Source: Elusimicrobiota bacterium (lineage in GTDB: Bacteria > Elusimicrobiota > Elusimicrobia > UBA1565 > JACRDR01). Taken from it: a stretch of DNA of 24,931 bases. The position numbers and the translations under genes were made by a program. The stretch covers positions 1 to 24,931 of the forward strand of contig JBGFSC010000031.1 in NCBI GenBank assembly GCA_041694815.1. Reading direction: 5' to 3'. How positions within the stretch are numbered: the stretch's first letter is position 1; the number at the start of each line of letters is the position of its first letter. Below, piece by piece: positions 135 to 24,931 of the stretch. The notes beneath the pieces were generated by a model. That model did not search any database, was not told the DNA's origin, and saw only the letters and a program-made list of their open reading frames with translations.

Positions 135-644
135 TTGAAGCCTCCGGCCCCGCGCCAATACGAGGAGCAATGGCGGCTAAAGGCCGGGACCATCGCCCAG
201 AATGCCGCCAAGTGGGCGCTGACGCTCTCCATCCTCGCGATTCTGGCCACCCAGGCCGGCTCCGTCATTCTGGGCTTCTTGATGACCGAGCCCTCCCTCG
301 CCATGTCCACGAAGCCCGAAGACATCAACTTGATGATCAACCTTATCCACTGGCGACGCTCGCTTATGATCGTGACCGCGTTGAGCATGGCGACCGGAAC
401 CTTGATGACGATTCCCGCCGTGACGCCTCATGGGAAAAAATGGGTTCGTGAACTCGGCGCGAGAATCGGAGCTTGGTTCGGTAAATGGATGGACGCCGCC
501 GCGCATCGAAGCTACATCCGCGCCAAGAGAGCGGAATGGAAAAAGACCTTGTCGACCGCCGCCAAGCCCGTCAGCTCCGCTTCGAGCACTAACGATGGCT
601 CCGCGGAGGACGAGCCAAGCGCGGAAGAAAGGTTTAAGTTATGA
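135..644 (+). CDS. RFK-tail small membrane protein family, paralog 1. Shortest module: no signal peptide, starts at the conserved GPKYH / PPxPxQYE block. Possibly a 5'-decayed copy. TTG start in the track
   Basis: Shares with paralogs 2, 4 and 5 the motifs PAPRQYEEQWRLKAG, two hydrophobic helices, GARIGAWFGK, AHRSYIRAKRAEWKKTLS and a C-terminal SAEERFKL. The in-frame upstream peptide DRSGPKYH matches ALGPKYH of paralog 2 but is cut by a TAA at 105-107. The stop overlaps the ATG of paralog 2 (ATGA). Confidence 0.45.
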   Translation: MKPPAPRQYEEQWRLKAGTIAQNAAKWALTLSILAILATQAGSVILGFLMTEPSLAMSTKPEDINLMINLIHWRRSLMIVTALSMATGTLMTIPAVTPHGKKWVRELGARIGAWFGKWMDAAAHRSYIRAKRAEWKKTLSTAAKPVSSASSTNDGSAEDEPSAEERFKL

Positions 645-1402: not shown

Positions 1403-1824
1403 ACGCTGTTTCGCATTCACCGTTCTCGTCCATCTTAATTGCTTCCACATTCTGTCCTGTAAAGCACGTTTCAGCCGAGGCTGCCCTGGAGATGCTCAAG
1501 CATGACTCCGGCATCCTTTTTGAGCAGACCACCGAACGACGGACGGACTCCCCGACCTGGAACACGCCGACGCTTTCGCTGCCTTACGTTGAAGCAGCGG
1601 CTCTGACGAACAACGTTTTCTCGAAACTACAGGGCCCGCGCCAGGACCCATCGGTCGGCTCTGCAATCGGACAGTCCTTAGGCCAAAAAAAGGACCAACG
1701 CGAATACGCTGCTTACCTAGAAGCAAAAAGACAGGAGTGGTCCCACAGCTTAACGAAACCCGCGAATTTAGAATCCCCCGATCCTGAAAGCGAGGATTCC
1801 GCCCAGGACCGGTTTAAACTTTAA
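1399..1824 (+). CDS. RFK-tail family, paralog 3. Soluble variant lacking the PPxPK/TM core but retaining the LFE box, the Y..K..EW helix and C-terminal DSAQDRFKL
   Basis: ATG at 1399 overlaps the upstream stop (ATGA). Hydrophobic N-terminus MNAVSHSPFSSILIASTFCPV. Motifs SGILFEQ, EYAAYLEAKRQEWSHSL and a C-terminal DRFKL. The track ORF begins 33 nt earlier in the same frame. Confidence 0.6.
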   Translation: MNAVSHSPFSSILIASTFCPVKHVSAEAALEMLKHDSGILFEQTTERRTDSPTWNTPTLSLPYVEAAALTNNVFSKLQGPRQDPSVGSAIGQSLGQKKDQREYAAYLEAKRQEWSHSLTKPANLESPDPESEDSAQDRFKL

Positions 1825-1826
1825 CG

Positions 1827-2426
1827 ATGCCCCGGTCCTTTTTCCTTATGTCATTATGCATCTTACCTGTGTTCAGTGAGGATGCGTCGAGTCCCGAAAA
1901 GCATAAGGCGGGATCGGGCGCGCTTTTCGGCGAGACGGTCCCTACGCCTGCGGCATCCGCCATCACTCGTGAGGAACCGAAGGTGCACCCCCTCGCCCTG
2001 GCGGCGGGGGCGGGAAACCCTGCGGGATCGGTTCCGGAACCTCCTCAACCGAAGCAATTCGAACAAGCTTGGGAGCAAAAAGGCATGCGGCGCGGTCAGC
2101 TCATCGGTTCCGCCATCTTCTTTCCGACGATATTCGGCATGCTTATATCGATGGCCGGAGCCTTTGCGACTTCAAGGGTCGAATTCGTCATAGCGATCCA
2201 ATTCCTCGCGCTGGCCTTCCTTTCCGGATTTATCCCTCTTATGATCGCTCCCTTGATCGGAAGGCGCCTGGGAAAGGCGAAGGATACCCGCGAGTACCGG
2301 CGCTATTTGGAGGAACGCCTGGCATCGTGGTCGCGGCCCCCGAAGGCCGAGGACGGCCCCAAAACCGACGGAACGCAAACGGACGGTGACGATGCCGATT
2401 CCGCCCAGGAGCGATTTAAATTTTGA
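1827..2426 (+). CDS. RFK-tail small membrane protein family, paralog 4
   Basis: Signal peptide MPRSFFLMSLCILPVFS. Motifs SPEKHKAGSGALFGE, PPQPKQFEQAWEQKG, two TM helices, GRRLGKAKDTREYRRYLEERLASW, acidic tail and C-terminal DSAQERFKF. Starts 2 nt after the paralog 3 stop. Confidence 0.7.
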   Translation: MPRSFFLMSLCILPVFSEDASSPEKHKAGSGALFGETVPTPAASAITREEPKVHPLALAAGAGNPAGSVPEPPQPKQFEQAWEQKGMRRGQLIGSAIFFPTIFGMLISMAGAFATSRVEFVIAIQFLALAFLSGFIPLMIAPLIGRRLGKAKDTREYRRYLEERLASWSRPPKAEDGPKTDGTQTDGDDADSAQERFKF

Positions 2427-3064
2427 AAATAATCTTACTGCTACTGACGATGACGTTTCGGCTCCCTTGCTTCGCCGATAGGCTCAGCCCGGAGAAGCTT
2501 AAAATGGAATCGGGCGTTCTTTTCGGCGAGAAGATATGGACGCAAGATGCCTCCGTTAAGGTGACGGCCCCACCGGCCGGCATCGCCGCTCTGGCCGCCG
2601 GACCGGATTCCCCTTCGAAAATGATCGCCGCGCCACCGCAACCGAAACGATTTGAGGAGGCCTGGAGCAAGAAAGGCGCGCGTATCGGGGACGGGATCGG
2701 CTCATGGATGGGCCTCGTCATGCTGGGCGTGTCGCTCGGAGTCACGGGGTTTGCTTTTTATATCGGCGGTCCCACGCCAGTCCTTGAAGGGAACCCGGGA
2801 GCGCCTTTCCTCACCTTAGGCTGTACTTTAATGATAAGCAGCCTGTTCTGCCTCGGCCTCGTCTCCGCGCTACTGCGATTTGCCGGAGGCGATCTTGGGA
2901 AATTATCAGGGAAGTGGAGAGACCATCAGGAGCACAAAGCTTATTTAAAAGCAAAACAGGCCGAGTGGATGCAACGCCTGAAGGAAAAACCAGAGGACAA
3001 CCCACAGGAACGCACCATAGAGGCATCGGAGTCGGACACCGCGCAAAATAGGTTTAAGTTCTAA
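2423..3064 (+). CDS. RFK-tail small membrane protein family, paralog 5. TTG start overlapping the upstream TGA
   Basis: The TTG start yields a good signal peptide MKIILLLLTMTFRLPCFA; the internal ATG would lose it. Motifs SPEKLKMESGVLFGE, PPQPKRFEEAWSKKG, two TM helices, EHKAYLKAKQAEWMQRL, acidic tail and C-terminal DTAQNRFKF. Confidence 0.65.
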   Translation: MKIILLLLTMTFRLPCFADRLSPEKLKMESGVLFGEKIWTQDASVKVTAPPAGIAALAAGPDSPSKMIAAPPQPKRFEEAWSKKGARIGDGIGSWMGLVMLGVSLGVTGFAFYIGGPTPVLEGNPGAPFLTLGCTLMISSLFCLGLVSALLRFAGGDLGKLSGKWRDHQEHKAYLKAKQAEWMQRLKEKPEDNPQERTIEASESDTAQNRFKF

Positions 3065-3751
3065 ATGAAAGCCTGGATAATCGCGTTGCTTACCAATGCC
3101 GTTCTCGCCTCCTCTTATCCTCTAGTCGACGCCGATATTACCGCCTTCGATAGAACGATTACGGAAATGGAGCGCCGCTTTAGCGGTAGGCCCAAAAATG
3201 CTCATGACAAAAAATGGGTCAAGGCCAAGTTATCGCATATGTTTAAAGTCGACCAGCATCTTCGAACATTCGCGATGGAAACGCCTTTAAAGAAATCATA
3301 TTCCGGCGAAGAAAAACGGTACTTCTGGGAGAAATTAGGGCCTCGTTGGAAAATGATCGATCATCGAAACACGACGGACTTAAAGGAGCTGCTGGCGGTC
3401 TACGGATGGATTAAGATTAGCGAATTCGGGGAGGAAGCCGACAATGCGGCCTGGCTGCTGGTCCAACACGCCGATGACGATCTCGCTTTTCAAAAAGAGA
3501 CGCTTATAAAGTTAGCGGCGCTCTATCCCGCGGGTGAAACAAAGCCATCCCACTATGCCTATCTCTACGATAGAGTGGCCATTCATGAAAATCGGCCGCA
3601 GCTATACGGCACTCAAGGGCGATGCGTCGCCGGAACTTGGGAGCCTTTCCCGATCGACAGTCCCGGGGAAGTCGATGAACGCCGCAAGGCGATGGGGCTG
3701 GAACCGCTTTTAGAATATAAGCAACGCTTTCAGGGCGCCTGCGATAGCTAG
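3065..3751 (+). CDS. Secreted hypothetical protein, last gene of the paralog operon
   Basis: ATG is immediately after the TAA of paralog 5. Signal peptide MKAWIIALLTNAVLASS. Contains blocks such as AWLLVQHADDDLAFQKE and YAYLYDRVAIHENRPQLYGTQ; I could not assign a family. Its stop overlaps the convergent mazF stop. Confidence 0.7.
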   Translation: MKAWIIALLTNAVLASSYPLVDADITAFDRTITEMERRFSGRPKNAHDKKWVKAKLSHMFKVDQHLRTFAMETPLKKSYSGEEKRYFWEKLGPRWKMIDHRNTTDLKELLAVYGWIKISEFGEEADNAAWLLVQHADDDLAFQKETLIKLAALYPAGETKPSHYAYLYDRVAIHENRPQLYGTQGRCVAGTWEPFPIDSPGEVDERRKAMGLEPLLEYKQRFQGACDS

Positions 3752-4098
3752 ACGCCGCGCGGATTCAACAACACCAGGAGCTTCTCGATGACTTCCCCTA
3801 AGATCGCCTCTGAAACCCTGCAACAAAACCGGGAATCCCTGGCTTGCCAATCCAAGCTCCTGACCTGATCGGCGAGCGCGACGCCGGAAACCCTCAAGCC
3901 CGGAGGCAATGAAACCTCAAAAGGGTAACCCTTCACCTGGCTTGTAATCGGGCAAAAGATCGCAAGTCCGACCTTTCGATTATACCCTTCGGGAGAAAGC
4001 GTCAGAGCCGGCCTATGGCCAGCCTGCTCGTGCCCCGCTTGAGAAGCAAAGGAAAGCCAAACGACATCGCCGCGTTTCGGGCAATACGGCTGCGGCAT
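3748..4098 (-). CDS. mazF: MazF/PemK-family endoribonuclease toxin
   Basis: The 116 aa product aligns along its length with E. coli MazF: GDVVWLSF..GHEQAGHRPALTLSP, GLAIFCPITSQVKGYPFEV, GVALADQVRSLDWQAR. Confidence 0.85.
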   Translation of the reverse strand: MPQPYCPKRGDVVWLSFASQAGHEQAGHRPALTLSPEGYNRKVGLAIFCPITSQVKGYPFEVSLPPGLRVSGVALADQVRSLDWQARDSRFCCRVSEAILGEVIEKLLVLLNPRGV

Positions 4099-4341
4099 TC
4101 ACCAGGTCTCTTGTCCGGCCCTGCGACCCCAATCCTGTTCGTCGTGACGATTCTTCCGGGTGACGCCTTTGAGCATTCTTGAAAGCGAGTACCTTCGTTC
4201 ACCCTTTGGTTTTACGACGATCTTTCCCTCCACGACGGCCACCTCGACCACCGTGCCCTGATGCAGGCGCACATCTTTGGCAAGCGAGCTTGGGATACGG
4301 AGGGCCAGGCTATTTCCCCATCTTTGAACGGTCGCATTCAT
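4099..4341 (-). CDS. mazE: MazE antitoxin (AbrB/SpoVT swapped-hairpin family)
   Basis: 80 aa. VQRWGNSLALRIPSSLAKDV...GKIVVKP...DWG..W mirrors E. coli MazE (VKRWGNSPAVRIP...IDWGEP..VW). Lies directly upstream of mazF on the same strand. Confidence 0.8.
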   Translation of the reverse strand: MNATVQRWGNSLALRIPSSLAKDVRLHQGTVVEVAVVEGKIVVKPKGERRYSLSRMLKGVTRKNRHDEQDWGRRAGQETW

Positions 4342-4369
4342 GGCAGGCTCCCCAGGAGTATCTACAATG

Positions 4370-4397
4370 AGTATACCTCATTATCCGCAGATGTCAA
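4370..4397 (-). promoter_or_regulatory. Putative mazEF promoter: TTGACA-N16-TATACT with GAGTAT direct repeats
   Basis: The minus strand reads cTCTTGACAtctgcggataatgaggTATACTcattgtagatactcctGGGGAGcctgccATG. The -35 is perfect, the -10 near consensus, and a GGGGAG SD lies 7 nt before the mazE ATG. Confidence 0.5.
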
Positions 4398-4427
4398 GAG
4401 CTTGATTCCTTAACGAGCCCCAACTCG

Positions 4428-4853
4428 TCAACCGCCACCCTTAAGCGGCAAAGCCCTAAGTCGAACAAGCTTCCCCAAATGCTCGAATTCCGGATCCTTA
4501 TGCACCAGCGTGGCGCCTAGTCGCTCAGCGGTCGCAGCGACCCAAGCATCGGCTACGGAAAGCTTATGCCCGGCCTTTATTCGCGCGGCCGCAAGCCCTA
4601 ATGGCTCGTCGCTCTCAACGGTCTCAACGGGAAGCTGCTTGAGCTCGAGTATGCCTTGGCGAGCCGCCGTCTCGCCCTGCTCCTGCTCGAGAACATAGGC
4701 GAACTCCATGATCGACATGAAACTAATAAAGACCCGCCCGTTCTTCCCTTCTCGCCTAAGGATCAACTCCACTTCGGCGGCGCCGGGCTCGTTCTCTTTC
4801 AGGCAGAGCAAAGCCGACGTATCCAGAACGAAGGTTTCAACGGCGGGAGGCAT
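4428..4853 (-). CDS. vapC: PIN-domain ribonuclease toxin (VapC-like)
   Basis: 141 aa beginning FVLDTSALL, with acidic PIN residues spaced as in VapC. The start overlaps the upstream small antitoxin gene by 17 nt. Confidence 0.8.
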   Translation of the reverse strand: MPPAVETFVLDTSALLCLKENEPGAAEVELILRREGKNGRVFISFMSIMEFAYVLEQEQGETAARQGILELKQLPVETVESDEPLGLAAARIKAGHKLSVADAWVAATAERLGATLVHKDPEFEHLGKLVRLRALPLKGGG

Positions 4854-5096: not shown

Positions 5097-5153
5097 GTAG
5101 TTTTCAATAAATTACATGTAAATAATAAATATTGGCATGCGGGCACAGTGATT

Positions 5154-5205
5154 GCGTTTCTGCGGATTTTACTTCCAACGTTGGAAGTAAAATTAACAGA
5201 AACGC
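5154..5205. repeat. Nested AT-rich palindrome: 26-bp perfect palindrome TTTTACTTCCAACGTTGGAAGTAAAA (5167..5192) flanked by GCGTTTCTG / CAGAAACGC arms
   Basis: Read directly from the sequence. It sits in the AT-rich gap between the small ORF downstream of valS and the vapBC promoter, at the GC-content transition. Confidence 0.6.
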
Positions 5206-5207
5206 AT

Positions 5208-5388: not shown

Positions 5389-8085
5389 TCAATTCAAGCT
5401 GCTTAAAATTTCGCGCAGGCGGCTCTGCTTCTGCTCGAAATCGGCCTGGCGGCGGCGTATCGTCTCCACCTCCGCCTGCGGCGCGCGGGAGACGAAGGCC
5501 TCGTTCGACAATTGATTCTTGCACCGGGCCAATTGGGCGTCGATCTCCCGGGCTTCCTTCTCGAGCCTCGCGCGCTCCTTGTCGAAGTCGATCAAGCCCT
5601 CGAGCGGCACGTAGAAGGTCAGGCCCGCCGCCAAGGCCGTCGCGCTGCGCGCGGGCTTGGCCCCTTCGGCCTCCGACAGGCTTTCGAGCCGCGCCAAATA
5701 TTTTAAATAGGGAGCGTGCTCGAGCACAAGCCCCCCGCGGTCCTTGGGGCCCTCGAAATGCGCCTGGATCTTGAGTCCCGGCGGCACGTTCAGCTGCGAA
5801 CGCAGGGTGCGCAGGGCCACGACCGCTTCCATCACCGCCTCCATCCTGGAAACGTTCTCGCCGTCCTGCCAATCCCTTTCCAAAACGGGGCCGCCAGACT
5901 GGATGAGGAAATCATGCGACTGGCCGGCGAAGGCCTTAAGGGAGGCGTATAACTCCTCCGTGATGAACGGCATGAAGGGGTGCAGCATCTTGAGCGTTCC
6001 CACCAGGACCTCGACCAGGATGGCGCGGGCGGCTTCCTTTTCCTCCCCATCAATGCCGGTCAGCCGAATCTTGGCCAACTCCACGTACCAGTCGCAAAAG
6101 CTGTCCCAAAGGAAGCCGTAAAGCGTATCGGCGGCCGCGGCGAATTCATGCGCGTCCATGTTCTCGCGCACCCGGGCGAGCATACCCTGGTACTGCGCCA
6201 AGACCCATCGATCAGCCAACTCCAGGCAGCAGTGGGACAAAGACTCCAGGCGATAACCGCCTGCCGGCGGCGCCGCCGGCAGATTCATGAGCACGAAGCG
6301 CGTCGAGTTCCAGAGCTTGTTGGCGAAATTGCGCGGGCCGGTGATGGAGTCCTCGGCGAAGGGGATGTCCCGGCCCGGATGGGCCTGCGACAGCAGCGAG
6401 AATCGGAAAGCGTCGGTGCCGTATTTGTCCATCATCACCAAGGGGTCGACGACGTTGCCGAGAGACTTGGACATCTTCTTTCCGGCCTTGTCGCGCACGA
6501 TGCCATGGATGATCCCCGTCGAGAAGGGAACCCCGCCCATGAGCTCCAACCCCATCATCTGCATGCGCGCGACCCAGAGGTAGAGTATCTCGTAGCCGGT
6601 CACCAGGGCCGAGGTCGGGTAAAAATACTCCAGGTCTTTCGTCTTCTCCGGCCAGCCGAACACCGAAAAGGGCCACAGGGCCGAGGAGAACCACGTGTCG
6701 AGCACGTCGGGGTCCTGAAGCAGCGAGGTCCCGCCGCAATCGGGGCATCGTTGGGGCTTTTCCGCGCCGGGGATCCCTTTCAGGTCCGCGGCCTGATGGA
6801 AATCCTTCTCGCTTATTCCAGGATTGCACGAGACGCAATACCAGACGGGAATGCGATGCCCCCACCAGATCTGACGCGAGATGCACCAGTCGCGGATCTC
6901 CTGTAGCCATCGGCGGTACGGGTTCCTCCAGCTCTCCGGAAAAAGCCTGAAATCGCCGCGATCCAGGGCGCGGACGGCCGGCTCGGCCAGCTTGGGCATC
7001 TTCACGAACCACTGCCACGACACGAGCGGCTCGATGGCCTGGTTGCAGCGGTAGCAGACGCCGACGGCGTGTGGGTGCTCCTCGGTCTTCTCGAGGAATC
7101 CCCCGTCGCGCAAGTCCGCGGCCACCTTGTCGCGGGCCTGCTCGCGGGAAAGGCCTGAGTATCCTTCTCCGGCGTCCGCGGTCATCTTCCCGTCGGGACC
7201 GATCACCTTGATGGAAGGCAGCGAGTGCCGCTGCCCGATCTCGAAGTCATTGGGGTCATGGGCCGGGGTCACCTTCACCGCGCCGGTCCCGAAGGAGGGG
7301 TCCACGTGCTCGTCCGCCTTGACGGGGATCGTTCGCCCCGTCAGCGGGAGCTTAAGCGTCTTGCCGACCAGGGCGGCATAGCGAGAATCCTTGGGATTGA
7401 CCGCCACCGCCGTGTCGCCGAGCATCGTCTCGGGACGGGTCGTGGCCACCACCAGTCCCCGGCCGCCGTCGGCCGACGGATAATGGATATGCCAGAGCTT
7501 CCCTTTGCGCTCCTCGTATTCCACCTCGATGTCGGAAAGCGCGGTGCCGCAGCGCACGCACCAGTTGACCATGCGCTCGCCCCGGTAGATGAGCCCCTTT
7601 TCCCAAAGATGCTTGAAGGCGGCCAATACCGCCCGCGCGCGGGGCTCGTCCATGGTGAAGGCCTCGCGATCCCAGTCCAGGGCGCAGCCGAGCCGCTCGA
7701 GCTGCCCCAGGATCGTGCTCTTGCAGGCCAGGGTCCACTCGCGCATGCGCTCCAAAAATTTCTCCCGGCCCAGAGCCTGCCTCGAGCCCTTCTCCGCGCG
7801 CAGCTGCTTCTCCATGACGTTCTGCGTCGCGATGCCGCCGTGGTCGGTGCCCGGGACCCAACAGACCGCATCGCCGTTTAACCGCCGCCAGCGGACCATC
7901 AAGTCCTGGAGGGCGTTGTTGAGGGCATGGCCGATATGCAGCGCGCCCGTCACGTTCGGCGGAGGGATGACCACGACGAAGGGCCGCGCCTCGGCGGAGG
8001 GCTCGGCGTGGAAGAGCCGCGCCCGCCTCCAGGCCGAGACCCATTTCGCCTCGACGGGCCCGGGATTGTAAACCTTCTCTAGCAT
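5389..8085 (-). CDS. valS: Valine--tRNA ligase
   Basis: N-terminus MLEKVYNPGPVEAKW. Class I HIGH motif PPPNVTGALHIGHAL. KMSKS motif (GKKMSKSLGN). Editing domain. C-terminal coiled coil (EAREIDAQLARCKNQLSNEAFVSRAP). The track ORF continues 38 aa upstream to 8199 as R/P-rich text; the ATG at 8085 was chosen. Confidence 0.9.
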   Translation of the reverse strand: MLEKVYNPGPVEAKWVSAWRRARLFHAEPSAEARPFVVVIPPPNVTGALHIGHALNNALQDLMVRWRRLNGDAVCWVPGTDHGGIATQNVMEKQLRAEKGSRQALGREKFLERMREWTLACKSTILGQLERLGCALDWDREAFTMDEPRARAVLAAFKHLWEKGLIYRGERMVNWCVRCGTALSDIEVEYEERKGKLWHIHYPSADGGRGLVVATTRPETMLGDTAVAVNPKDSRYAALVGKTLKLPLTGRTIPVKADEHVDPSFGTGAVKVTPAHDPNDFEIGQRHSLPSIKVIGPDGKMTADAGEGYSGLSREQARDKVAADLRDGGFLEKTEEHPHAVGVCYRCNQAIEPLVSWQWFVKMPKLAEPAVRALDRGDFRLFPESWRNPYRRWLQEIRDWCISRQIWWGHRIPVWYCVSCNPGISEKDFHQAADLKGIPGAEKPQRCPDCGGTSLLQDPDVLDTWFSSALWPFSVFGWPEKTKDLEYFYPTSALVTGYEILYLWVARMQMMGLELMGGVPFSTGIIHGIVRDKAGKKMSKSLGNVVDPLVMMDKYGTDAFRFSLLSQAHPGRDIPFAEDSITGPRNFANKLWNSTRFVLMNLPAAPPAGGYRLESLSHCCLELADRWVLAQYQGMLARVRENMDAHEFAAAADTLYGFLWDSFCDWYVELAKIRLTGIDGEEKEAARAILVEVLVGTLKMLHPFMPFITEELYASLKAFAGQSHDFLIQSGGPVLERDWQDGENVSRMEAVMEAVVALRTLRSQLNVPPGLKIQAHFEGPKDRGGLVLEHAPYLKYLARLESLSEAEGAKPARSATALAAGLTFYVPLEGLIDFDKERARLEKEAREIDAQLARCKNQLSNEAFVSRAPQAEVETIRRRQADFEQKQSRLREILSSLN

Positions 8086-8092
8086 GCTAACC

Positions 8093-8216
8093 GGCGACGA
8101 CCCCGGGCATTGCTTCCGTCGGAACGCGCGGCCTTTGGGGCCGCGCTCTGTCCTCGGCGGCTTTGGGGTGCGCCGCCTGCGGAGGTCCTCCTCCAGCAAT
8201 GCCCAGGGTCGTCGCC
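8093..8216 (-). promoter_or_regulatory. Structured valS leader: 21-bp long-range inverted repeat (8093..8113 / 8196..8216) enclosing further GC hairpins
   Basis: GGCGACGACCCCGGGCATTGC pairs with GCAATGCCCAGGGTCGTCGCC, 20 of 21 Watson-Crick plus one G-U in the mRNA sense. The 3' arm ends 7 nt before the valS ATG. Internal hairpins: GCGCGGCC-TTTGG-GGCCGCGC and GGAGGTCCTCC. Confidence 0.4.
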
Positions 8217-8220
8217 AATC

Positions 8221-9519
8221 TCACAAAAGCTCAGACGCCAGGGCCGCCAGCGGGCTGCGCTCGATCTTGGAGAAGGTCACGTGCCCGAACAGGGGCTGGC
8301 CCTTGAAATGCTCCACCAGGTTGGTGAGCCCGTTGGAGGCGGCGTCCAGGTAATAATTGTCGATCTGATAGGGATCGCCGGTCAAGACGATCTTCGAGCC
8401 CTGCCCGACGCGCGAGATGATGGTCTTGATCTCGTGCGGCGTCAGGTTCTGGGCGTCGTCGATGATGATGTATTGGTTGGGCAGCGTGCGGCCGCGCAAA
8501 AATGTCACGGCCTCGATCTCGATCTTCTTCTGCTCGACGAGCATCTGGATGCTCATCTCGCTTTCCTCGGAATGGGGCCGGTCCATGAGAAACTCGAGGT
8601 TGTCGTAGATGGCTCCCATCCAGCTCTCGAGCTTCTCCTGCTTGGATCCGGGCAAGAACCCGATGTCGTGGCCCACCGCGATCACCGGCCGGGCGATGAG
8701 CATGCGGCGGTAGAGCTTCTCCTCGAGTATCTGCTCGAGGCCCGCGGCCAAGGCCATGAGCGTCTTGCCCGAACCGGGGACCCCGACCAAGGTGACGAGC
8801 TGCACCTCCTTGCGCATCAAAAGCTCCAGGGCGAAGCGCTGCTCGGTGTTGAGCGGCTTGATGCCCCACGGCACGGTGTCGGCCTTCGTTAACGGCACCA
8901 GGGAGCCCAGCTTCTGGTCGTAGCGGGTCAAAGCGGACTTGGAGCCGCCGTCGTTGTCCTTGAGGATCACGAATTCGTTGGGCTTAAGCCCTCCCTCGTT
9001 GACCGCCAGGCGCCGGGTCTTGTAGAAGGAGTCGATCTCGCCCGGGGGCGCGCCCACCTCCTGCCAGCCGCGGTAGAGGTCGGTCACGTCGACCTTTTCC
9101 CTCTCGTAGTCCTGCGTGTCGAGCCCGATGGCCTCGGCCTTGATGCGCAGGTTGATGTCCTTGGAGATGAAAACGATCTTGTCGCCCTCTTTCTTGAGCT
9201 GCTGCGCGACGGCGAGGATCATGTTGTCCTTGCTATGGGACAGGAAGGTCGGCGGCAGGCCGTTGCCGCTCACCATCTCGACCTTGAGAGTGCCCCCATG
9301 CTCCAGGATAACCCCGTCCGATAATTTCCCCTTGGACCTCAGGCCGTCGAGCTTGCGGGCCACCAGCCGCGCCGCGCGGCCGCGCTCGTCGTTGTTGCGC
9401 TTGAAGGTATCGAGCTCCTCGATGACGGGCAACGGCAGCACCACCTTCGAGCCCTCGAAGGCGAAGATGGCGTTGGGGTCGTGGATGACGACGTTGGTGT
9501 CGAGCACGAAGGTTTTCAC
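8221..9519 (-). CDS. PhoH-like ATPase with N-terminal PIN domain (PhoH2/YlaK type)
   Basis: GTG start preceded by GGGAGG-N5 gives MKTFVLDTNVVIHDP, a PIN N-terminus. Walker A GVPGSGKT. PhoH C-terminal block IIIDDAQNLTPHEIKTIISRVGQGSKIVLTGDPYQID. The track ORF extends 213 codons upstream into hemW as GC-frame artefact. Confidence 0.85.
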   Translation of the reverse strand: MKTFVLDTNVVIHDPNAIFAFEGSKVVLPLPVIEELDTFKRNNDERGRAARLVARKLDGLRSKGKLSDGVILEHGGTLKVEMVSGNGLPPTFLSHSKDNMILAVAQQLKKEGDKIVFISKDINLRIKAEAIGLDTQDYEREKVDVTDLYRGWQEVGAPPGEIDSFYKTRRLAVNEGGLKPNEFVILKDNDGGSKSALTRYDQKLGSLVPLTKADTVPWGIKPLNTEQRFALELLMRKEVQLVTLVGVPGSGKTLMALAAGLEQILEEKLYRRMLIARPVIAVGHDIGFLPGSKQEKLESWMGAIYDNLEFLMDRPHSEESEMSIQMLVEQKKIEIEAVTFLRGRTLPNQYIIIDDAQNLTPHEIKTIISRVGQGSKIVLTGDPYQIDNYYLDAASNGLTNLVEHFKGQPLFGHVTFSKIERSPLAALASELL

Positions 9520-11470: not shown

Positions 11471-11545
11471 CGCGAAATACTCGCGAGGAACCTCGAACTC
11501 GTCGCGCGAAGCGCGACGAGTCACGCGCCCGAGGCGCGTAAAAGA
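11471..11545. repeat. Intergenic mosaic palindromic repeat, locus 1: modules D, AACCTCGAA, hairpin A, hairpin C
   Basis: D is CGCGAAATACTCGCGA at 11471..11486, also at 15160..15175. Hairpin A is CTCGTCGCGC-GAA-GCGCGACGAG at 11498..11520, identical at 24787..24809. Hairpin C is ACGCGCC-CGA-GGCGCGT at 11523..11539, present inverted at 24678..24694. Confidence 0.7.
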
Positions 11546-11558
11546 CCGTTTATACATT

Positions 11559-11567
11559 TGGTATAAT
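11559..11567 (+). promoter_or_regulatory. Extended -10 element TGGTATAAT upstream of ispG; no consensus -35
   Basis: TGnTATAAT lies 9 nt before the ispG ATG at 11576, implying a very short or leaderless 5' end. The same element type precedes the dehydrogenase operon. Confidence 0.35.
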
Positions 11568-15159: not shown

Positions 15160-15227
15160 CGCGAAATACTCGCGAAGATGGTGCCAGGGATTGACTTTCG
15201 CCTAGGCGAAAGTCAATCCCTGGCACC
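15160..15227. repeat. Intergenic mosaic repeat, locus 2: module D, CTCGCGAAGAT linker, 48-bp perfect palindrome B
   Basis: B is GGTGCCAGGGATTGACTTTCGCCTAGGCGAAAGTCAATCCCTGGCACC at 15180..15227, an exact self reverse complement centred on CCTAGG, identical at 24718..24765. The linker recurs inverted at 24766..24776. Confidence 0.75.
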
Positions 15228-15234
15228 GCATATT

Positions 15235-15243
15235 TGCTATAAT
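15235..15243 (+). promoter_or_regulatory. Extended -10 element TGCTATAAT upstream of the dehydrogenase-rib operon
   Basis: TGnTATAAT lies 17 nt before the ATG at 15261, immediately downstream of palindrome B. Confidence 0.35.
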
Positions 15244-15260
15244 AATCCTTCTAAATTCAA

Positions 15261-16292
15261 ATGAAAGCCCTCCTATATGAGGGACCCCAAAAGGTCCAGC
15301 TCAAAGAGGTCCCCATCCCGCAAATCGGCGACGGGGAGGCCCTGGTAGCGGTGGAGGCCTGCGGGCTCTGCGGCACCGACATAGTCAAGATCATGAACGG
15401 CCGCCATCGCCCACCCCTGCCCCTGGGGCACGAGGTCTCCGGCCGCGTGCACGCCCTAGGAAGCGGGGTCAAGGGCTTTAAGGTCGGCGACCGCGTGATG
15501 GTGGCCCATCACGTCCCCTGCGGCCAATGCCATTTCTGCAGGCGCTTGAGCGAGACGATGTGCGTTCAGTTCAAGGAAAGCAATCTAGACCCCGGCGGGT
15601 TCTCGGAGTACGTCCGCGTCTCCGAACGCCACGTGCGGCATACGATGCTCAAGCTGCCCCGGCAGGTGGACTTTTTCGCCGCCTCGCAGGTCGAGCCGCT
15701 GGCCTGCTGCCTGCGCAATCTCCGCCGCCTGGCCCTGGAGCCGGACGATTGGGCCATAGTCGTCGGCTTGGGCTCCATCGGCCTCATGACGGCGCAGCTG
15801 CTGCGCCTGCGGGGGGTCAACGTGCTGGCCTTCGACCTGGAATCGGCCCGGGTGCGGCTCGCCCAGAAATCGGGAATCGAGCACTCCTATACCGGAAAAG
15901 ACGGGCGGTCGGAGGAGCTCGTGAGGACCTTGACGGGGTACCGGGGAGCCGACGCGCTGATCCTGACGGCCGGCACCCCCTCCTTGGCCGCCGAGAGGCT
16001 CTCCTGGATCCGGGACGGCGGGACCTTGAACATCTTCGCCAGCTTCCATCCCGATCCCCATATGCGCCTGGACTTAAACGCCGTCTACCACCGCGAGCTC
16101 AAGATCGTGGCGAGCTATTCGGCCACGCCCCAGGACCTGCGCGAGGCGCTCGAGCTCATCGGCGATAAAGCGATCGATTTGGCTCCCTATACGGGCCATA
16201 CCTTTGGTCTTTCTAGCTTCCCGGAAGCCCTTCGTCGGGCCCGGGGACGCGAGGTACTCAAGGCCATCCTTACCCCGCGGAGCGCGCGATGA
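15261..16292 (+). CDS. Zinc-dependent medium-chain dehydrogenase/reductase (threonine/sorbitol dehydrogenase-like), paralog 1
   Basis: Catalytic zinc ligands in the ACGLCGTDIVKI block and GHEVSG. Structural zinc cluster CGQCHFCRRLSETMC. Rossmann motif VVGLGSIGL. Confidence 0.85.
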   Translation: MKALLYEGPQKVQLKEVPIPQIGDGEALVAVEACGLCGTDIVKIMNGRHRPPLPLGHEVSGRVHALGSGVKGFKVGDRVMVAHHVPCGQCHFCRRLSETMCVQFKESNLDPGGFSEYVRVSERHVRHTMLKLPRQVDFFAASQVEPLACCLRNLRRLALEPDDWAIVVGLGSIGLMTAQLLRLRGVNVLAFDLESARVRLAQKSGIEHSYTGKDGRSEELVRTLTGYRGADALILTAGTPSLAAERLSWIRDGGTLNIFASFHPDPHMRLDLNAVYHRELKIVASYSATPQDLREALELIGDKAIDLAPYTGHTFGLSSFPEALRRARGREVLKAILTPRSAR

Positions 16293-17311
16293 AGGCCATT
16301 CTCTTTTATGGCCCCCAGCAGATCAAGCTCGTCGACGTTCCTCTCCCCTCGCCCGGCCCGGGGCAGGTGCTGCTTAAGGTCGGAGCGGCATTGACCTGCG
16401 GCACGGATTTTAAGGCCTACCGCCAGGGGCATCGCGTGCTTTTAGGCGATCTGCCAGCTCCATTCGGCCACGAACTGGCCGGCACCGTCGTCGAGGCCGG
16501 CCCCGGCGTGAGCGGGCTTAAGCCCGGCATGCGGGTGGTGGCGGCCAATTCCGCGCCCTGCGACAGCTGTTTTTTCTGCCTCAAGGGGCAAAACCAGCTC
16601 TGCGACCGCCTCAAGCTCCATAACGGAGCCTATGCCGAGTATAATTTGCTTCCGGCGCAGATCGTCAAGCATAATGTCTACCCGTTACCGCCGGAGCTGG
16701 GCTTCAAGGAAGCGGCCCTGGCCGAACCCCTCGCCTGCGCGATCCATGCCGTCGACGTGATGCGCGTCGAGGCTGATGAGCGCGTCGCGATCATCGGCGC
16801 CGGGAACATGTCCCTGCTCTTGATCATGGCCTTAGCGCAGCGGGGCGCCCACATCACCGTGATCGGACGCAGCCCCGCGCGCCTGGCCTTGGCCGCGCGA
16901 GCGGGCGCCCACGCGACGGTGAGCGCGCTGGAGGGTGACGCGTCGCGGGCCGTCCGGGCGCTTTCCCAGGACGTCGGCGCCGACTGCGTTTTCGAGGCGG
17001 TCGGCAAGCCCGACACCTGGGAGCAGGCCGTCTCCCTCGCCCGCAAGGGGGGGCGCGTCTGCCTTTTCGGGGGGTGCTCGATGGGCACCCGCATTCCGGT
17101 CGACGCCCATCGCCTGCATTACGAGCAGCTCTGCCTCCAGGGGGTCTTCCACCACACCCCGAAATATTTCCGGCAGGCCGTGGAGCTTTTGGCCGCCGGC
17201 CGAGTGCGGACGGAACTCCTCATCGCCGACAGCATCCCGCTCGAGGAGATCCCCTCTTACTTCGAGCGGACGCACCGGCAATCGAACCCGAAGGTCGCCG
17301 TCATCCCGTGA
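16289..17311 (+). CDS. Zinc-dependent medium-chain dehydrogenase/reductase, paralog 2
   Basis: ATGA overlap with paralog 1. Motifs LTCGTDFKAY, GHELAGTV, CDSCFFCLKGQNQLC and IIGAGNMSL. Confidence 0.85.
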   Translation: MKAILFYGPQQIKLVDVPLPSPGPGQVLLKVGAALTCGTDFKAYRQGHRVLLGDLPAPFGHELAGTVVEAGPGVSGLKPGMRVVAANSAPCDSCFFCLKGQNQLCDRLKLHNGAYAEYNLLPAQIVKHNVYPLPPELGFKEAALAEPLACAIHAVDVMRVEADERVAIIGAGNMSLLLIMALAQRGAHITVIGRSPARLALAARAGAHATVSALEGDASRAVRALSQDVGADCVFEAVGKPDTWEQAVSLARKGGRVCLFGGCSMGTRIPVDAHRLHYEQLCLQGVFHHTPKYFRQAVELLAAGRVRTELLIADSIPLEEIPSYFERTHRQSNPKVAVIP

Positions 17312-18387
17312 AGAAAACCGAAGACGAATCCTGGCTTAGACGCGCCCTGGCCCTGGCCAGGCGCGGGATTCCCAAGGCCAGCCCCAACCCGCTAGTGGGC
17401 TGCGTACTGGTGAAAAACGGCCGCCGGGTCTCCGAGGGCTGGCATGCCGCCTTCGGGGGGCCGCATGCCGAGGCCGCCGCCATGAGCCGGGCGGGCTCTT
17501 CGGCGCGGGGGTCTACGGCCTACGTCACGCTGGAGCCCTGCGCGGGCGGCGGCGGTAAAAAAACCCCCCCGTGCGCTCCCGCCCTCGTGGCCACCGGGAT
17601 ACGGCGCGTGGTCGCGCCGTGCGAGGACCCGAACCCGAACGTCGCCGGACGCGGCTTTCGGGAGTTGCGCCGCGCGGGGATCCAAGTCTCCGTCGGCTTG
17701 CTCCGCGAGGAGTGCGCGGCCCTCAATCGCCCGTTCTTCGTGCGGATGCGCACCGGCCGGCCCTACGTCATCTTGAAGGCGGCCGCCAGCCTCGATGGGC
17801 GCATCGAAACCTCGCGCAGGCAGTCGCGCTGGATCACCGCCGAAGCGTCCAGGCGGCTGGCCCACCGCATGCGCGCGGAAGTGGACGCGATCCTGGTGGG
17901 GGTCGAGACGGTGCTCCGCGACGACCCGGGCCTGACGGCGCACGGCATGGGCCGCGATCCGCTGCGAGTCGTCCTGGATTCGCGCCTGAGGACTCCCGCC
18001 TCCGCCAAGCTGCTCCGGGGCCGCGCACCGGCGCTGCTGTTCACGTCGCCGCAGGCGCTCTGCCGCCGGCCGCCCGCGGGCGCGTGGGCCCTGCCGGTGC
18101 CTCAAAACGGCGCGGGCTTAGACCTCCATCAGGTGCTGGCCTCCCTGGCCTCCATGGGCGTCGGCACCGTGCTGGTGGAGGGAGGAAGCGCAGTGCACAC
18201 CGCGTTCATCGAGAAGGGCCTCGTCGACGAGCTGCGCCTGTTCCTGGCGCCCATGCTCATCGGCGGCGCCTCGGCCCGCAGCTTTTTCGAGGGGGGCGGT
18301 TTCGCTTCACTCAACCGTGCGCTCCGCTTTAAGCAGTTGCGGGTGCGCAGCCTCGGGGCCGATACGCTCGTCACCGGATACTTATAA
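17308..18387 (+). CDS. ribD: Bifunctional diaminohydroxyphosphoribosylaminopyrimidine deaminase / 5-amino-6-(5-phosphoribosylamino)uracil reductase
   Basis: GTG start overlapping the upstream TGA (GTGA). Deaminase zinc motifs HAEAAAM and the TLEPCA..G block, then the reductase domain (RPYVILKAAASLDGRI ... VLVEGGSAVHTAF). The track ORF is extended 78 codons upstream. Confidence 0.85.
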   Translation: MKKTEDESWLRRALALARRGIPKASPNPLVGCVLVKNGRRVSEGWHAAFGGPHAEAAAMSRAGSSARGSTAYVTLEPCAGGGGKKTPPCAPALVATGIRRVVAPCEDPNPNVAGRGFRELRRAGIQVSVGLLREECAALNRPFFVRMRTGRPYVILKAAASLDGRIETSRRQSRWITAEASRRLAHRMRAEVDAILVGVETVLRDDPGLTAHGMGRDPLRVVLDSRLRTPASAKLLRGRAPALLFTSPQALCRRPPAGAWALPVPQNGAGLDLHQVLASLASMGVGTVLVEGGSAVHTAFIEKGLVDELRLFLAPMLIGGASARSFFEGGGFASLNRALRFKQLRVRSLGADTLVTGYL

Positions 18388-18989
18388 TGTTTACGGGAAT
18401 CGTGCGGGAGCTTGGAAACGTCCACTCCAACAAGAACGGCCGACTGCTGGTTCAGGCCCGGCTCGGGCGCATTCCGATCGGAGGCAGCGTGGCGGTCAAC
18501 GGCGTCTGCCTGACGCTCGCGCGCCGCCTCGGCGCCTCGCTCGAGTTCGAGATGAGCCGCGAGACCCTGCGACGGACGAACCTGGGCTCGCTCCAGAAGC
18601 GTGACGTGGTCAATCTGGAGCCGGCGCTGAAGGCCTCGGACTTCGTCGGCGGGCATTGGGTCAGCGGCCACGTGGACTCCCCGGCCGCGGTGCTCGAAGT
18701 CGATCGGCTCAAGGGCGGTTTCTTGAGGCTTCGGATAAGCCTTCCGCCGGAGCTGCGCCCTCTCGTGGCGCTCAAGGGCTCCATCGCCGTGGATGGGACG
18801 AGCCTGACCGTCACGCGCGTCGGGAAGGGCTATTTCGAGACCGTGCTCGTGCCTCACACCATCCGCCGCACGAATCTCGGCTCGCGCAGGCCGGGGGATA
18901 GGGTGAATCTGGAGGCGGATTTGATGGCGAGGTATTTGATGAACTTATTACGCAACGGCGCAAGCTTGCGCGAGGGACCGTGCGAATGA
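18387..18989 (+). CDS. ribE: Riboflavin synthase alpha subunit
   Basis: MFTGIV.E.G start, two lumazine-binding repeats (GGSVAVNGVCLT / GSIAVDGTSLTV). 200 aa. Confidence 0.85.
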   Translation: MFTGIVRELGNVHSNKNGRLLVQARLGRIPIGGSVAVNGVCLTLARRLGASLEFEMSRETLRRTNLGSLQKRDVVNLEPALKASDFVGGHWVSGHVDSPAAVLEVDRLKGGFLRLRISLPPELRPLVALKGSIAVDGTSLTVTRVGKGYFETVLVPHTIRRTNLGSRRPGDRVNLEADLMARYLMNLLRNGASLREGPCE

Positions 18990-20209
18990 CTAAGTTCAAC
19001 ACCGTCACGGAAGCCGTAGACGCCATCCGCAAAGGGAAGATGGTCGTGCTCGTCGACGACCCGCACCGCGAGAACGAGGGAGACCTCGCGATGGCGGCCG
19101 AGAAGGTGACGGTCGAGGCCGTCAATTTCATGGCCACGCACGGGCGGGGCCTTATCTGCGTGCCCATGCTGCCGGAAAGCCTCGACCGTCTGCGCATCGG
19201 GCCGATGGTCGACGGCGCCCCGGCCTCCGGCTCCGGCCGCGATACGGCCTTCTCCGTGAGCGTCGACGCCAAGCGCGGCACGACCACCGGCATCTCGGCG
19301 CACGACCGCTGCGCCACCATCCACGCCCTCCACGACCCGCGCGCGGTGCCCGAGGATTTCAACCGGCCAGGACACGTCTTCCCGCTCCGCTGCAAGGAGG
19401 GCGGGGTGCTGGTGCGCGCCGGGCACACCGAGGCCATCGTGGACTTAGCCAAGCTCGCCGGGTTGCGCCCCGCCGGTGTGATCTGCGAGATCCTCAACCC
19501 CGACGGGACCATGGCGCGGGTGCCGCAATTGGGCAAGTTCGCGCGGCGCCATGGCCTCAAGATGCTCACCATCCAAAGCCTCATCGAATACCGCCGCGCC
19601 AACGAGAAGCTGGTCCGCAGGCTCGTCTCGGCCAGGCTGCCCACCCGCTACGGCGAATTCGTCCTGCACCTCTACGAGGAACTCCTAAGCGGCAAGCAGC
19701 ATCTCGCCCTGGCCCTTGGTAAGGTCGCCGGCGCCAAGGAGGTGCTCATCCGCGTCCACTCCTCCTGTATCACCGGCGACACGCTGTTCTCCCTGCGCTG
19801 CGATTGCGGCTCGCAGCTGCAGCGGGCGCTGCAACAGATATCGGAGGAAGGCCGGGGCGTGCTGGTCTACCTCAACCAGGAGGGGCGCGGCATTGGGCTC
19901 TTCAACAAGATCCGCTCTTACGTGCTCCAGGACCAGGGCATGGACACGGTCGAGGCCAACAAGGCCCTTGGCTTCGAGGCGGACCTGCGCGAATACGGCA
20001 TCGGCGCGCAGATACTCGCCGACCTTGGCCTGAGCACCTTGAAGATATTAACCAACAACCCGCGCAAGATCGTCGGGATCGAAGGCTACGGCCTACGCGT
20101 GGTGCGCCGCATCCCCATACAGATTCCCTCGACAACCCATACGGAGCGCTATTTCCTGGCCAAGAAGCGCAAGATGGGCCATTGGCTGAGCGTGCGAAAG
20201 GGCTTGTGA
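18986..20209 (+). CDS. ribBA: Bifunctional 3,4-dihydroxy-2-butanone-4-phosphate synthase / GTP cyclohydrolase II
   Basis: DHBP synthase block (VLVDDPHRENEGDL, RAGHTEA), then a GTP cyclohydrolase II domain with Cys triad CITGDTLFSLRCDCG. ATG at 18986 overlaps the ribE stop (ATGA). Confidence 0.9.
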   Translation: MTKFNTVTEAVDAIRKGKMVVLVDDPHRENEGDLAMAAEKVTVEAVNFMATHGRGLICVPMLPESLDRLRIGPMVDGAPASGSGRDTAFSVSVDAKRGTTTGISAHDRCATIHALHDPRAVPEDFNRPGHVFPLRCKEGGVLVRAGHTEAIVDLAKLAGLRPAGVICEILNPDGTMARVPQLGKFARRHGLKMLTIQSLIEYRRANEKLVRRLVSARLPTRYGEFVLHLYEELLSGKQHLALALGKVAGAKEVLIRVHSSCITGDTLFSLRCDCGSQLQRALQQISEEGRGVLVYLNQEGRGIGLFNKIRSYVLQDQGMDTVEANKALGFEADLREYGIGAQILADLGLSTLKILTNNPRKIVGIEGYGLRVVRRIPIQIPSTTHTERYFLAKKRKMGHWLSVRKGL

Positions 20210-20637
20210 AGGGCGCTCGTTTCGCGATCGTCGCCTCCCGCTTTAATTCTGAGATAACCGACCGCCTCCTCCGTAACTGCCTCACGCGCCTGCGCGAGGG
20301 CGGAGTGGGCTCGAGGCACGTGACGGTCGTCCGCGTCCCCGGCGCCTTCGAGATCCCGTGGGCGGCCCAGGCCCTAGCCCGCCGGGGGAAATACCGGGCC
20401 GTCATCTGCCTGGGCGCGGTCTTGAAGGGGCAGACACCCCAAAACGACTACATCTCCGCGTCGACGATCTCGCATCTCCATGACGTCAGCCTGGCCACCG
20501 GCGTTCCCTGCATCCTCGGCATCATCACCCCTAGGACCTACGCCCAGGCCAAGGCGCGCACCCGAGGGTCCTTGGACCGCGGCCGCGAGGCGGCCGAGGC
20601 GGCGTTGGAACTAATGGAAATACGAAAGACCTTATGA
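20206..20637 (+). CDS. ribH: 6,7-dimethyl-8-ribityllumazine synthase
   Basis: ARFAIVASRFN..I.D.L, VVRVPGAFEIP, GAVLKG.T.QNDYIS. GTG overlapping the ribBA TGA. An alternative in-frame TTG at 20182 would add 8 residues. Confidence 0.8.
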   Translation: MKGARFAIVASRFNSEITDRLLRNCLTRLREGGVGSRHVTVVRVPGAFEIPWAAQALARRGKYRAVICLGAVLKGQTPQNDYISASTISHLHDVSLATGVPCILGIITPRTYAQAKARTRGSLDRGREAAEAALELMEIRKTL

Positions 20638-20655
20638 AAACGAATTGTCCCCCCC

Positions 20656-20688
20656 GCTACTCGCCCCCCCGCGGGGGGGGCGAGTAGC
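20656..20688 (+). promoter_or_regulatory. 15-bp GC hairpin (GCTACTCGCCCCCCC-GCG-GGGGGGGCGAGTAGC) ending at the nusB ATG, with an upstream competing C7 tract
   Basis: Read directly. The stem is 20656..20670 / 20674..20688, the loop GCG. The 3' arm carries the only SD-like purine run (GGGGGGGCGAG) for nusB, whose ATG is at 20689. A second C7 run at 20649..20655 could pair with the same G8 run. Confidence 0.55.
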
Positions 20689-24661
<3,973 letters not shown>

Positions 24662-24672
24662 AACAACGGCGG

Positions 24673-24809
24673 CTTTTACGCGCCTCGGGCGCGTGGCTCG
24701 GCGCGCTTTGTTTTCGCGGTGCCAGGGATTGACTTTCGCCTAGGCGAAAGTCAATCCCTGGCACCATCTTCGCGAGAAACCTCGAACTCGTCGCGCGAAG
24801 CGCGACGAG
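24673..24809. repeat. Intergenic mosaic repeat, locus 3: inverted hairpin C, palindrome B, inverted CTCGCGAAGAT linker, AACCTCGAA, hairpin A
   Basis: CTTTTACGCGCCTCGGGCGCGT at 24673..24694 is the reverse complement of 11523..11544. B is at 24718..24765. ATCTTCGCGAG is at 24766..24776. AACCTCGAA is at 24778..24786. Hairpin A is at 24787..24809. Confidence 0.75.
24689..24714 (+). terminator. Possible weak intrinsic terminator after purH
   Basis: GCGCG-tggctcgg-CGCGC stem directly followed by TTTGTTTT. Short stem with an 8-nt loop, so weak. Confidence 0.3.
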
Positions 24810-24904
24810 TCACGCGCTCAAGACTTATATGATGAATGTCGGCAGCTTCTCTGCGATCCTCGCGGAAAGTAAAATGAGGAAACTAATTCGCAGAGGAGAT
24901 TCAA

Positions 24905-24931
24905 ATGACTACCGGGCAAGGATTCGTCGCG
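24905..24931 (+). CDS. 5' end of an unidentified gene, truncated by the window end
   Basis: GAGGAG-N7-ATG, then MTTGQGFVA. Only 9 codons are visible. Confidence 0.3.

Follow-up and report, generated by a model that had tools for sequence, protein, structure and literature searches.

A 48-nt perfect palindrome, found twice in the window (the whole stretch of DNA analysed here, a complete 24,931-bp MAG contig), probably represents a family of small, non-autonomous, hairpin-forming palindromic repeats of one Elusimicrobiota lineage, resembling REPINs or TIR-only MITEs. Four kinds of observation, all from sequence comparison, lead to this reading: inverted ends that are conserved around a variable, still-pairing interior; termini shared by long and short versions; identical, recent copies that face opposite ways, each with a one-sided tail; and lineage-specific presence at syntenic sites, with a patchy distribution. 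The family is previously undescribed. The kind of element is known, and such repeats are new for the phylum Elusimicrobiota, for which a full-text literature search returned no report of comparable repeats.

Two identical palindromes in a repeat mosaic

NCBI names of its nearest homologues place the window in the Elusimicrobiota. It carries housekeeping genes: by Pfam, valS, phoH-PIN, a band-7 gene, ispG and genes for a histidine kinase and a CsgG-like lipoprotein, and also two zinc alcohol dehydrogenase genes (ADH1 and ADH2), the rib operon, nusB, ligA and purH. The palindrome GGTGCCAGGGATTGACTTTCGCCTAGGCGAAAGTCAATCCCTGGCACC, first picked out from the sequence alone, is real and exact at both of its positions (Table 1). 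It is its own reverse complement, its 24-nt arms showing 100% complementarity with 0 nt between them. The window holds no third match at three or fewer mismatches, and none is expected (100 dinucleotide-preserving shuffles); nor were degenerate or half copies found there by blastn-short, or further family members by the covariance model described below. The observation is highly non-random.

The sequence-only reading had also reported that the two loci share the linker CTCGCGAAGAT in opposite orientations. They do, and the identical unit is longer than the palindrome, reaching 61 nt (CTCGCGAAGAT, the 48-mer and GC) in an inverted pair. With all 61 nt identical, the 11-nt one-sided tail included, the two copies are, judged by this identity, a very recent duplication. 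They are flanked by AGAT and CGC, and the flanks of other members are unrelated. A check for target-site duplications gave no direct repeat of 2–9 bp flanking the 48-mer, the 61-mer or any member in the relatives. The hairpin claimed for RNA is borne out, with a perfect 22-bp stem and a CUAG loop (the region folds at about −57 kcal/mol, z −9.5); as single-stranded DNA the 48-mer folds at −28 kcal/mol, z −13.

Table 1. Positions of the palindromes, neighbouring modules and promoter elements in the window, and of family members at loci of related genomes
Feature	Position	Strand	Remarks
Palindrome copy 1 (family member win_A)	15180..15227	.	24-nt arms, centre CCTAGG
Palindrome copy 2	24718..24765	.	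identical to copy 1
61-nt unit at copy 1	15169..15229	+	11-nt tail CTCGCGAAGAT, hairpin, GC; tail 5' on + strand
61-nt unit at copy 2, inverted	24716..24776	-	tail 5' on - strand
B module	11471..11544	+	hairpins ACTCGTCGCGC-GAA-GCGCGACGAGT and CGCGCC-CGA-GGCGCG; just upstream of ispG promoter
Partial B	24770..24822	+	94–98% identical to 11481–11533; overlaps copy 2 tail at TCGCGAG
Partial B, inverted	24673..24708	-	with following TTTGTTTTC (to 24717) forms purH terminator-like hairpin and T-run
16-nt piece CGCGAAATACTCGCGA	15160..15175	+	common to B start, 11471–11486
ADH1 extended −10 element TGCTATAAT	15235..15243	+	7 nt after copy 1; kept in palindrome-less relatives
ispG extended −10 element TGGTATAAT	11559..11567	+	14 nt after B module; conserved in relatives
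L018_m	L018 (GCA_016207485.1) 7883–7952		70 nt, 33-nt perfect arms
e1	L005 (GCA_016195065.1) 234–317		one or two mismatches
e2	L005 11558–11613		one or two mismatches; also in Logan raw-run assemblies L006, L007
e3	L005 12257–12315		perfect, 27-nt arms
e4	L005 7314–7811		497 nt, 39-nt perfect termini
e5	L020 2373–2465		93 nt, almost no interior, about five arm mismatches, decayed
e6	L020 16261–16347		decayed

As was claimed, each copy is preceded by a stop codon and followed by a gene start. Copy 1 starts 22 nt past the TAG of the CsgG-like gene, overlaps the −35 region of the ADH1 promoter and ends 33 nt ahead of the ADH1 ATG. Copy 2 starts 56 nt past the purH stop, directly after the terminator-like hairpin and T-run of purH (24687–24717, from a terminator consensus scan), and ends ∼139 nt ahead of the next ATG. 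Extended −10 promoters (TGnTATAAT) with no recognisable −35 stand 10–25 nt upstream of the ADH1 and ispG starts and are conserved across genomes only about 70% identical in protein; their distance from the starts implies very short leaders in this lineage. TGnTATAAT sites are also found in relatives, at 8683–8693 and 3620–3628 of locus L018 and at 6957–6967 and 2391–2399 of locus L019.

The surroundings of both copies contain pieces of a second intergenic repeat, here called B, which is unrelated to the palindrome, is made up of small hairpins and is present in complete, partial and inverted versions. At ispG the B module is extra DNA upstream of the conserved promoter, and relatives have no B there; more generally, the B family was not found at the corresponding loci of relatives. 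The piece CGCGAAATACTCGCGA at copy 1 is itself a small hairpin, CGCGA-AATAC-TCGCG, which abuts and overlaps the copy 1 tail. Partial B lies on both sides of copy 2, which thus stands between two inverted B pieces, and in a formal flank-symmetry test the flanks of copy 2 are symmetric only through these pieces; for copy 1 the same test was not significant. With its B pieces the spacer downstream of purH is a BIME-like mosaic. Since the CTCGCGA of the tail also occurs in B, the 61-nt identity could reflect recombination among mosaic repeats, not transposition.

The same B pieces allow the inverted 61-nt copies to be taken as terminal to a composite transposon or an invertible segment of 9.5 kb (15176–24769) that has inserted into a repeat of type B at CTCGCGAG: joined, the sequence left of copy 1 and that right of copy 2 rebuild B (X-CTCGCGAG-Y), which is intact at 11471–11544, and TCGCGA can be read as a 6-bp duplication. 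TCGCGA is itself palindromic, however, so it may equally be just an extension of the inverted repeat; no recombinase was found nearby (Pfam, window ORFs); and the gene orders CsgG-like, ADH1, ADH2, ribD and rib, nusB, ligA, purH are ancestral in repeat-free relatives. Synteny, with an ancestral gene order inside the segment and across its left border, largely refutes this candidate, and we hold it to be very unlikely.

Other repeats and gene clusters of the window are recorded here in their own right. A 124-nt unit at 8093–8216 (phoH stop to valS start, - strand genes), with 22-nt inverted repeats GGCGACGACCCYGGGCATTGCT that are 95% complementary and with internal hairpins, fills a phoH-valS spacer that measures only 9 nt in locus L143; it resembles a further MITE-like insertion, here within an operon. 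At 20656–20688 a 15-bp G/C hairpin, GCTACTCGCCCCCCC-GCG-GGGGGGGCGAGTAGC, immediately precedes the nusB ATG; in locus L004, ribH and nusB abut with no spacer. An AT-rich, near-perfect 54-nt palindrome at 5153–5206 (27-nt arms, 89% complementary, with a 14-nt perfect core ATTTTACTTCCAAC/GTTGGAAGTAAAAT) lies between valS and a PIN-toxin gene that has an apparent small AbrB/VapB-like antitoxin ORF upstream, and could be a toxin-antitoxin operator or a terminator. A toxin-antitoxin cluster of MazF/PemK-MazE and a PIN-domain gene occupies 3748–4853 (- strand), beside housekeeping genes, and five ORFs at 641–3751 stand in tandem and appear to be paralogues, with 3' ends that are alike (repeat families D1/D6); one matches DUF6624, and the others have no Pfam hit.

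A patchy family in related genomes

The closest available genomes (PurH 69–75% and ADH1 about 72% identical) keep the gene order of the window. The spacer between the csgG-like gene and ADH1 measures 103 nt in the window versus 63 nt and 35 nt in relatives, whose junction keeps the promoter TTTG(C/G)TATAAT (TTTGCTATAAT / TTTGGTATAAT) and has no hairpin. Copy 1 thus counts as added DNA, roughly element-sized, that lies directly upstream of the conserved promoter. Downstream of purH a family member is present both in the window and in L005, a locus of GCA_016195065.1, where the spacer after purH begins GGTGCCTGTCGTTGACTGTTGACTCT-CCGC-AGAGTCAACAGTCAACGACTGACACC; this shared member could reflect long-term vertical retention under selection instead of mobility. 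In L004, the locus of the closest relative, a different, near-perfect 42-nt palindrome, TAGAAAGTCCCGGGCCGACG-aa-CGTCGGCCCGGGAATTTCTA (7396–7437), overlaps the purH stop; it is flanked by an A-tract and a T-tract, as is typical of a bidirectional intrinsic terminator.

Homologous elements of 56–497 nt were found at seven more loci in two related genomes, bringing the family to nine loci and eight distinct sequences in three genomes. A covariance model with a conserved foot and a variable apex, built on five members, recovered all the known ones and added e5 and e6, which were not in its training set (E about 1e-7). The elements stand at differing intergenic sites in differing genomes, in either orientation; no polymorphism of excision or insertion was seen among them. 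In sampled DNA their density is two in 24.9 kb (the window), six in about 40 kb (GCA_016195065.1) and one in 19 kb (GCA_016207485.1), and the covariance model found none in 66 kb from four other Elusimicrobiota assemblies (L004, L017, L019, L142 and L143). The distribution of the family is patchy. The 39-nt termini of e4 and e5, ∼23 kb apart on one contig, are 97% identical, which points to proliferation inside the genome of the relative too.

Among the interpretations first offered for the palindrome, the best fit comes from recent spread and from a minimal mobile element represented by its terminal inverted repeats. They are in keeping with the 61-nt identity in opposite orientations, with copy 1 as extra DNA and with a family in related genomes whose 497-nt and 93-nt members share termini. 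An assembly or chimera artefact of the MAG contig might be suspected, given a metagenome assembly in which copy 2 is 166 nt from the contig end. Both copies, however, are in unique, gene-consistent context, and an artefact is excluded by homologous palindromes in independent NCBI MAGs and in Logan raw-run assemblies (L006 and L007, with e2); we give it practically no weight.

In the long member e4 the interior consists of nested long palindromes (RNA fold −289 kcal/mol, z −13) and contains no notable ORF; e4 could be a gene for a structured RNA, or several elements nested in one another. A nested insertion of known repeats is unsupported, as the interior has no further copies in sampled DNA. 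In GCA_016195065.1, blocks of extra genes break up otherwise conserved adjacencies (L005 221–7876 and L020 13819–16347): nusB and ligA are parted by a block of 7.6 kb that has e1 and e4 at its borders and contains a HigB/HTH pair, an acyltransferase gene and a kinase gene, while ribE and ribBA are parted by one of 2.5 kb with its end at e6, the right arm of which includes the called ribBA start codon.

Wider searches used a 19-mer half-arm query, TGCCAGGGATTGACTTTCG, so as not to miss copies in which one arm is degenerate. An exact scan of 185,579 GTDB genomes and of JGI metagenomes (the source genome not being among them) gave no further palindrome; its only three matches, L001–L003, are single-arm and due to chance. 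Nothing palindromic was found in PLSDB (blastn) or in IMG/VR (16-mer scan). The more than 120 IMG/VR matches to the family termini proved to be a conserved 46-nt phage coding sequence, not palindromes. This sequence, CGGTGCCAGTATGGTGCTCGGTGGTGTGGCGCAGATGCTGGCACCG (loci L023–L101, e.g. L023 1920–1965), has family 9-mers at both ends and is unrelated to the family; it would contaminate any search made with termini only. At two IMG/VR loci, L059 and L113, the ends are only 12 bp. At gathering score, neither the window nor the loci of the relatives matched any Rfam family; the only hits were chance ones below threshold, inside e4.

Conserved foot, arm symmetry and possible function

Common to the members is a foot, GGTG(C/T)C(A/T)G...C(T/A)G(G/A)CACC, whereas the apex and the rest of the arm vary. 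The conserved part amounts to the outermost 8–9 bp, (C)GGTG(C/T)C(A/T)G and its complement, and the distance from foot to foot ranges from about 30 to about 480 nt. TTGACT is present in three of the eight distinct members (win_A, e2 and e3); the others have TTGAAC, TTTACA, TTTCAC or TTAAGT.

This pattern of conservation bears on the proposal that the palindrome binds, as a symmetric duplex, a dimeric regulator or nucleoid protein through TTGACT/AGTCAA half-sites and defines a small regulon. The perfect dyad symmetry, the TTGACT of win_A, e2 and e3 and the placement of copy 1 over the −35 region of the ADH1 promoter would suit an operator. Yet operators need neither 48/48 identity nor mirrored indels, the flanking genes are functionally unrelated, orthologous promoters in relatives do without the site, and feet spaced so variably are incompatible with a dimer site of fixed spacing. 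With TTGACT in just three members and conservation confined to the outermost base pairs, the dimeric site put forward by the sequence-only reading does not hold up, and we consider an operator improbable.

Promoter functions were weighed as well. A sigma-70 promoter built from TTGACT, outward or at the junction, was rejected, there being no −10 hexamer 16–18 nt downstream. The outward end CTGGCAC, which matches the sigma-54 −24 consensus, could with a flanking −12 GC make the elements portable sigma-54 promoters. TGGCAC-CATCT-TCGC, from the hairpin end and the conserved tail, is one example, and on the tail side the 61-nt unit has the spacing GG-N10-GC; in e2 the right flank reads TGACAC-CGGAC-TTGCA. 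The GC is at the right spacing in only four of 13 outward flanks (counted by eye), however, and TTGC occurs once only, beside a broken GG. At copy 1, transcription from the tail side would run antisense into the CsgG-like gene, and the spacing on the right flank is 12 nt, not 10 nt. Portable promoters of this kind seem to us highly improbable. An integron attC site was also rejected. Such sites are imperfect palindromes with R''/R' cores (RYYYAAC / GTTRRRY) and extrahelical bases, located at the cassette 3' end and accompanied by an integrase or an attC array, whereas the stems here are perfect with no bulged bases, the foot GGTGCCAG is unlike the core, and the flanking genes are housekeeping genes in ancestral order.

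The arms are symmetric in a way that extends to their differences between members. Those of win_A and L018_m are identical at 21 of 22 aligned positions and are separated by about 10 nt of indels, mirrored in both arms. When five distinct members are compared over their 19 outer pairs, Watson-Crick pairing holds in 96.8% of cells, and both sides have changed in nine of the 19; the observed pairing and covariation were unmatched in 500 shuffles, and slid controls paired at 22–44%. No G.U intermediates occur within the element (0 G.U among 14 double changes), which suggests symmetry at the DNA level. Four members or their termini are perfect (win_A, L018_m, e3 and the e4 termini). Degenerate, non-palindromic copies elsewhere had been named at the outset as an argument against selection for symmetry; the copies elsewhere have diverged in sequence yet remain palindromic through changes in both arms, with two decayed exceptions (e5 and e6), and this favours maintained symmetry.

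Neighbouring genes are co-directional at five of the nine members, convergent at one and divergent at three (L018_m, e5 and e6). This layout matters for a reading in which the hairpin acts primarily in the transcript, as a terminator without a U-tract, a read-through insulator, a 3'-end stabiliser or an RNase III site, with selection on the RNA stem preserving the palindrome and with the two window copies arising when a useful module was copied by copy-paste recombination. Six members are downstream of a stop codon, four of them starting within 3–22 nt of it; copy 1 is set exactly in the interval from the upstream stop to the extended −10 promoter that follows downstream; stems of 22–33 bp are very stable; and the L004 palindrome at the purH stop indicates that the lineage uses hairpins at such positions. 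Against this, no member is followed by a T-run, and the terminator consensus scan misses both copies; the combination expected of an intrinsic terminator, a G+C-rich stem-loop and then a U/T-tract, is found at neither copy nor at the other members, although the lineage has canonical terminators of hairpin and T-run (24687–24717, and in L004) and purH has a terminator-like hairpin of its own directly ahead of copy 2. The three members between divergent genes lie where no 3' end is expected, the 14 double changes include no G.U pair, and relatives dispense with any hairpin at the csgG-like/ADH1 junction. The bidirectional terminator that had been suggested is thus unsupported as a defining role, for want of T-runs and given the terminator of purH and the divergent members, and a primarily transcript-level function is unlikely. 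It is compatible with the mobile-repeat explanation.

Under the mobile-repeat explanation, the element would, when on single-stranded DNA, fold to a perfect hairpin, and a trans-acting hairpin-specific enzyme would recognise the foot and move or copy the unit. The most plausible enzyme would be an HUH/Y1 transposase of RAYT or IS200/IS605 type, with its gene in another part of the genome. Arm identity, including the mirrored indels, may be kept by hairpin-templated copying, that is, by intrastrand template switching (quasipalindrome correction) or by regeneration of one arm during transposition; perfect symmetry together with mirrored indels makes such DNA-level arm-to-arm copying the best explanation. 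Lying between adjacent genes, the 22-bp stem would, where transcribed, likely block read-through, protect the 3' end or be an RNase III substrate, and an RNA-hairpin role in transcripts is possible for copy 1, for example. Such a role would be a side effect or secondary co-option and would not define the family, given the members in divergent regions, the absent U-tracts and the canonical terminator already ahead of copy 2.

A more radical proposal, to which we attach little credence, is that the elements are self-templating palindromic replicators without GTAG/RAYT logic, which land in or build hairpins and mark or promote the borders of inserted gene blocks in conserved operons. One arm (hairpin and one-sided tail) would be transferred and the other regenerated by fold-back synthesis, so that copies would be born perfect. 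The palindrome between inverted B pieces, and e4 as a nest of palindromes, suggest a preference for other hairpins; e1, e4 and e6 at the edges of the 7.6-kb and 2.5-kb blocks of GCA_016195065.1 suggest the marking of borders. If true, this would be a mechanism of hairpin-dependent mobilisation and recombination not yet described.

Relation to known small repeats

REPINs are hairpin-forming doublets of REP sequences mobilised by RAYT/TnpA-REP, for example in Pseudomonas fluorescens SBW25 (PMC3116915; PMC8266576). They have conserved inverted ends around a less conserved hairpin-forming spacer with compensatory changes, and their excised intermediate is a hairpin with a 5' tail (PMC3116915). The present elements are likewise short, non-coding, intergenic and symmetric, with conserved inverted ends and a less conserved, pairing middle that shows compensatory changes. 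They too have no target-site duplications, have multiple copies per genome and are distributed patchily and partly vertically, and their putative mobile form, a hairpin with a one-sided tail, parallels the 61-nt unit.

There are also differences. Classical REPs have a tetranucleotide that is conserved, usually GTAG, immediately 5' of each palindrome (PMC8266576), whereas no GTAG motif was found at the elements, whose conserved GGTG belongs to a foot, GGTG(C/T)C(A/T)G, inside the stem. In the window copies nothing separates the arms, and small palindromes are not a regular feature of the halves: CAGTC-GTT-GACTG is in e3 and, imperfectly, in e2, with no equivalent in win_A, L018_m or e1. REPs number tens to hundreds per genome; the density here is modest, with 25–40 kb sampled per genome. 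A REPIN system further has a single-copy RAYT (Y1 transposase) gene, typically flanked by repeats, while no transposase or RAYT gene is among the window ORFs (Pfam) or the called genes of the relatives' sampled loci.

The mosaic downstream of purH (24662–24905), made up of inverted partial B, palindrome and direct partial B, recalls the BIMEs of Escherichia coli, as does the recurrence of modules in differing combinations at three loci. Unlike those of BIMEs, the modules are unrelated to PUs and form no tandem arrays, and no IHF or gyrase-binding motifs were identified. The Correia/NEMIS MITEs of Neisseria resemble the family in having TIRs around little or no interior, in long and short versions (here e4 and e5), in positions next to promoters or terminators and in transcripts that would form long RNase III-type stems. 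Correia elements, however, duplicate TA at their target, and here there is no target-site duplication; the perfectly identical arms with mirrored indels are a further difference. Of the features of DDE-type MITEs, TIRs around a short non-coding interior are present (arms of 24–39 nt, perfect) and a target-site duplication is absent. To our knowledge these elements have no related autonomous IS, and no parent IS with the same termini was seen in sampled DNA. In E. coli, intrastrand template switching is described as correcting quasipalindromes; such correction would explain perfect arms and two-arm indels without selection; it is a mutational process, not an element family, and its operation here is inferred.

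Work on small palindromic repeats (REP, REPIN, BIME and MITE) has dealt almost wholly with Proteobacteria and a few other groups in culture. A family in an uncultivated groundwater lineage that does without the canonical GTAG would give such elements a wider range, and hints at a different recognition determinant, the conserved 8–9 bp hairpin foot. Repeats of this sort break metagenome assemblies and may pass for regulatory sites or terminators in annotation. With its Watson-Crick symmetry and mirrored indels, the family would offer a clean natural example of arm-to-arm homogenisation in palindromes.
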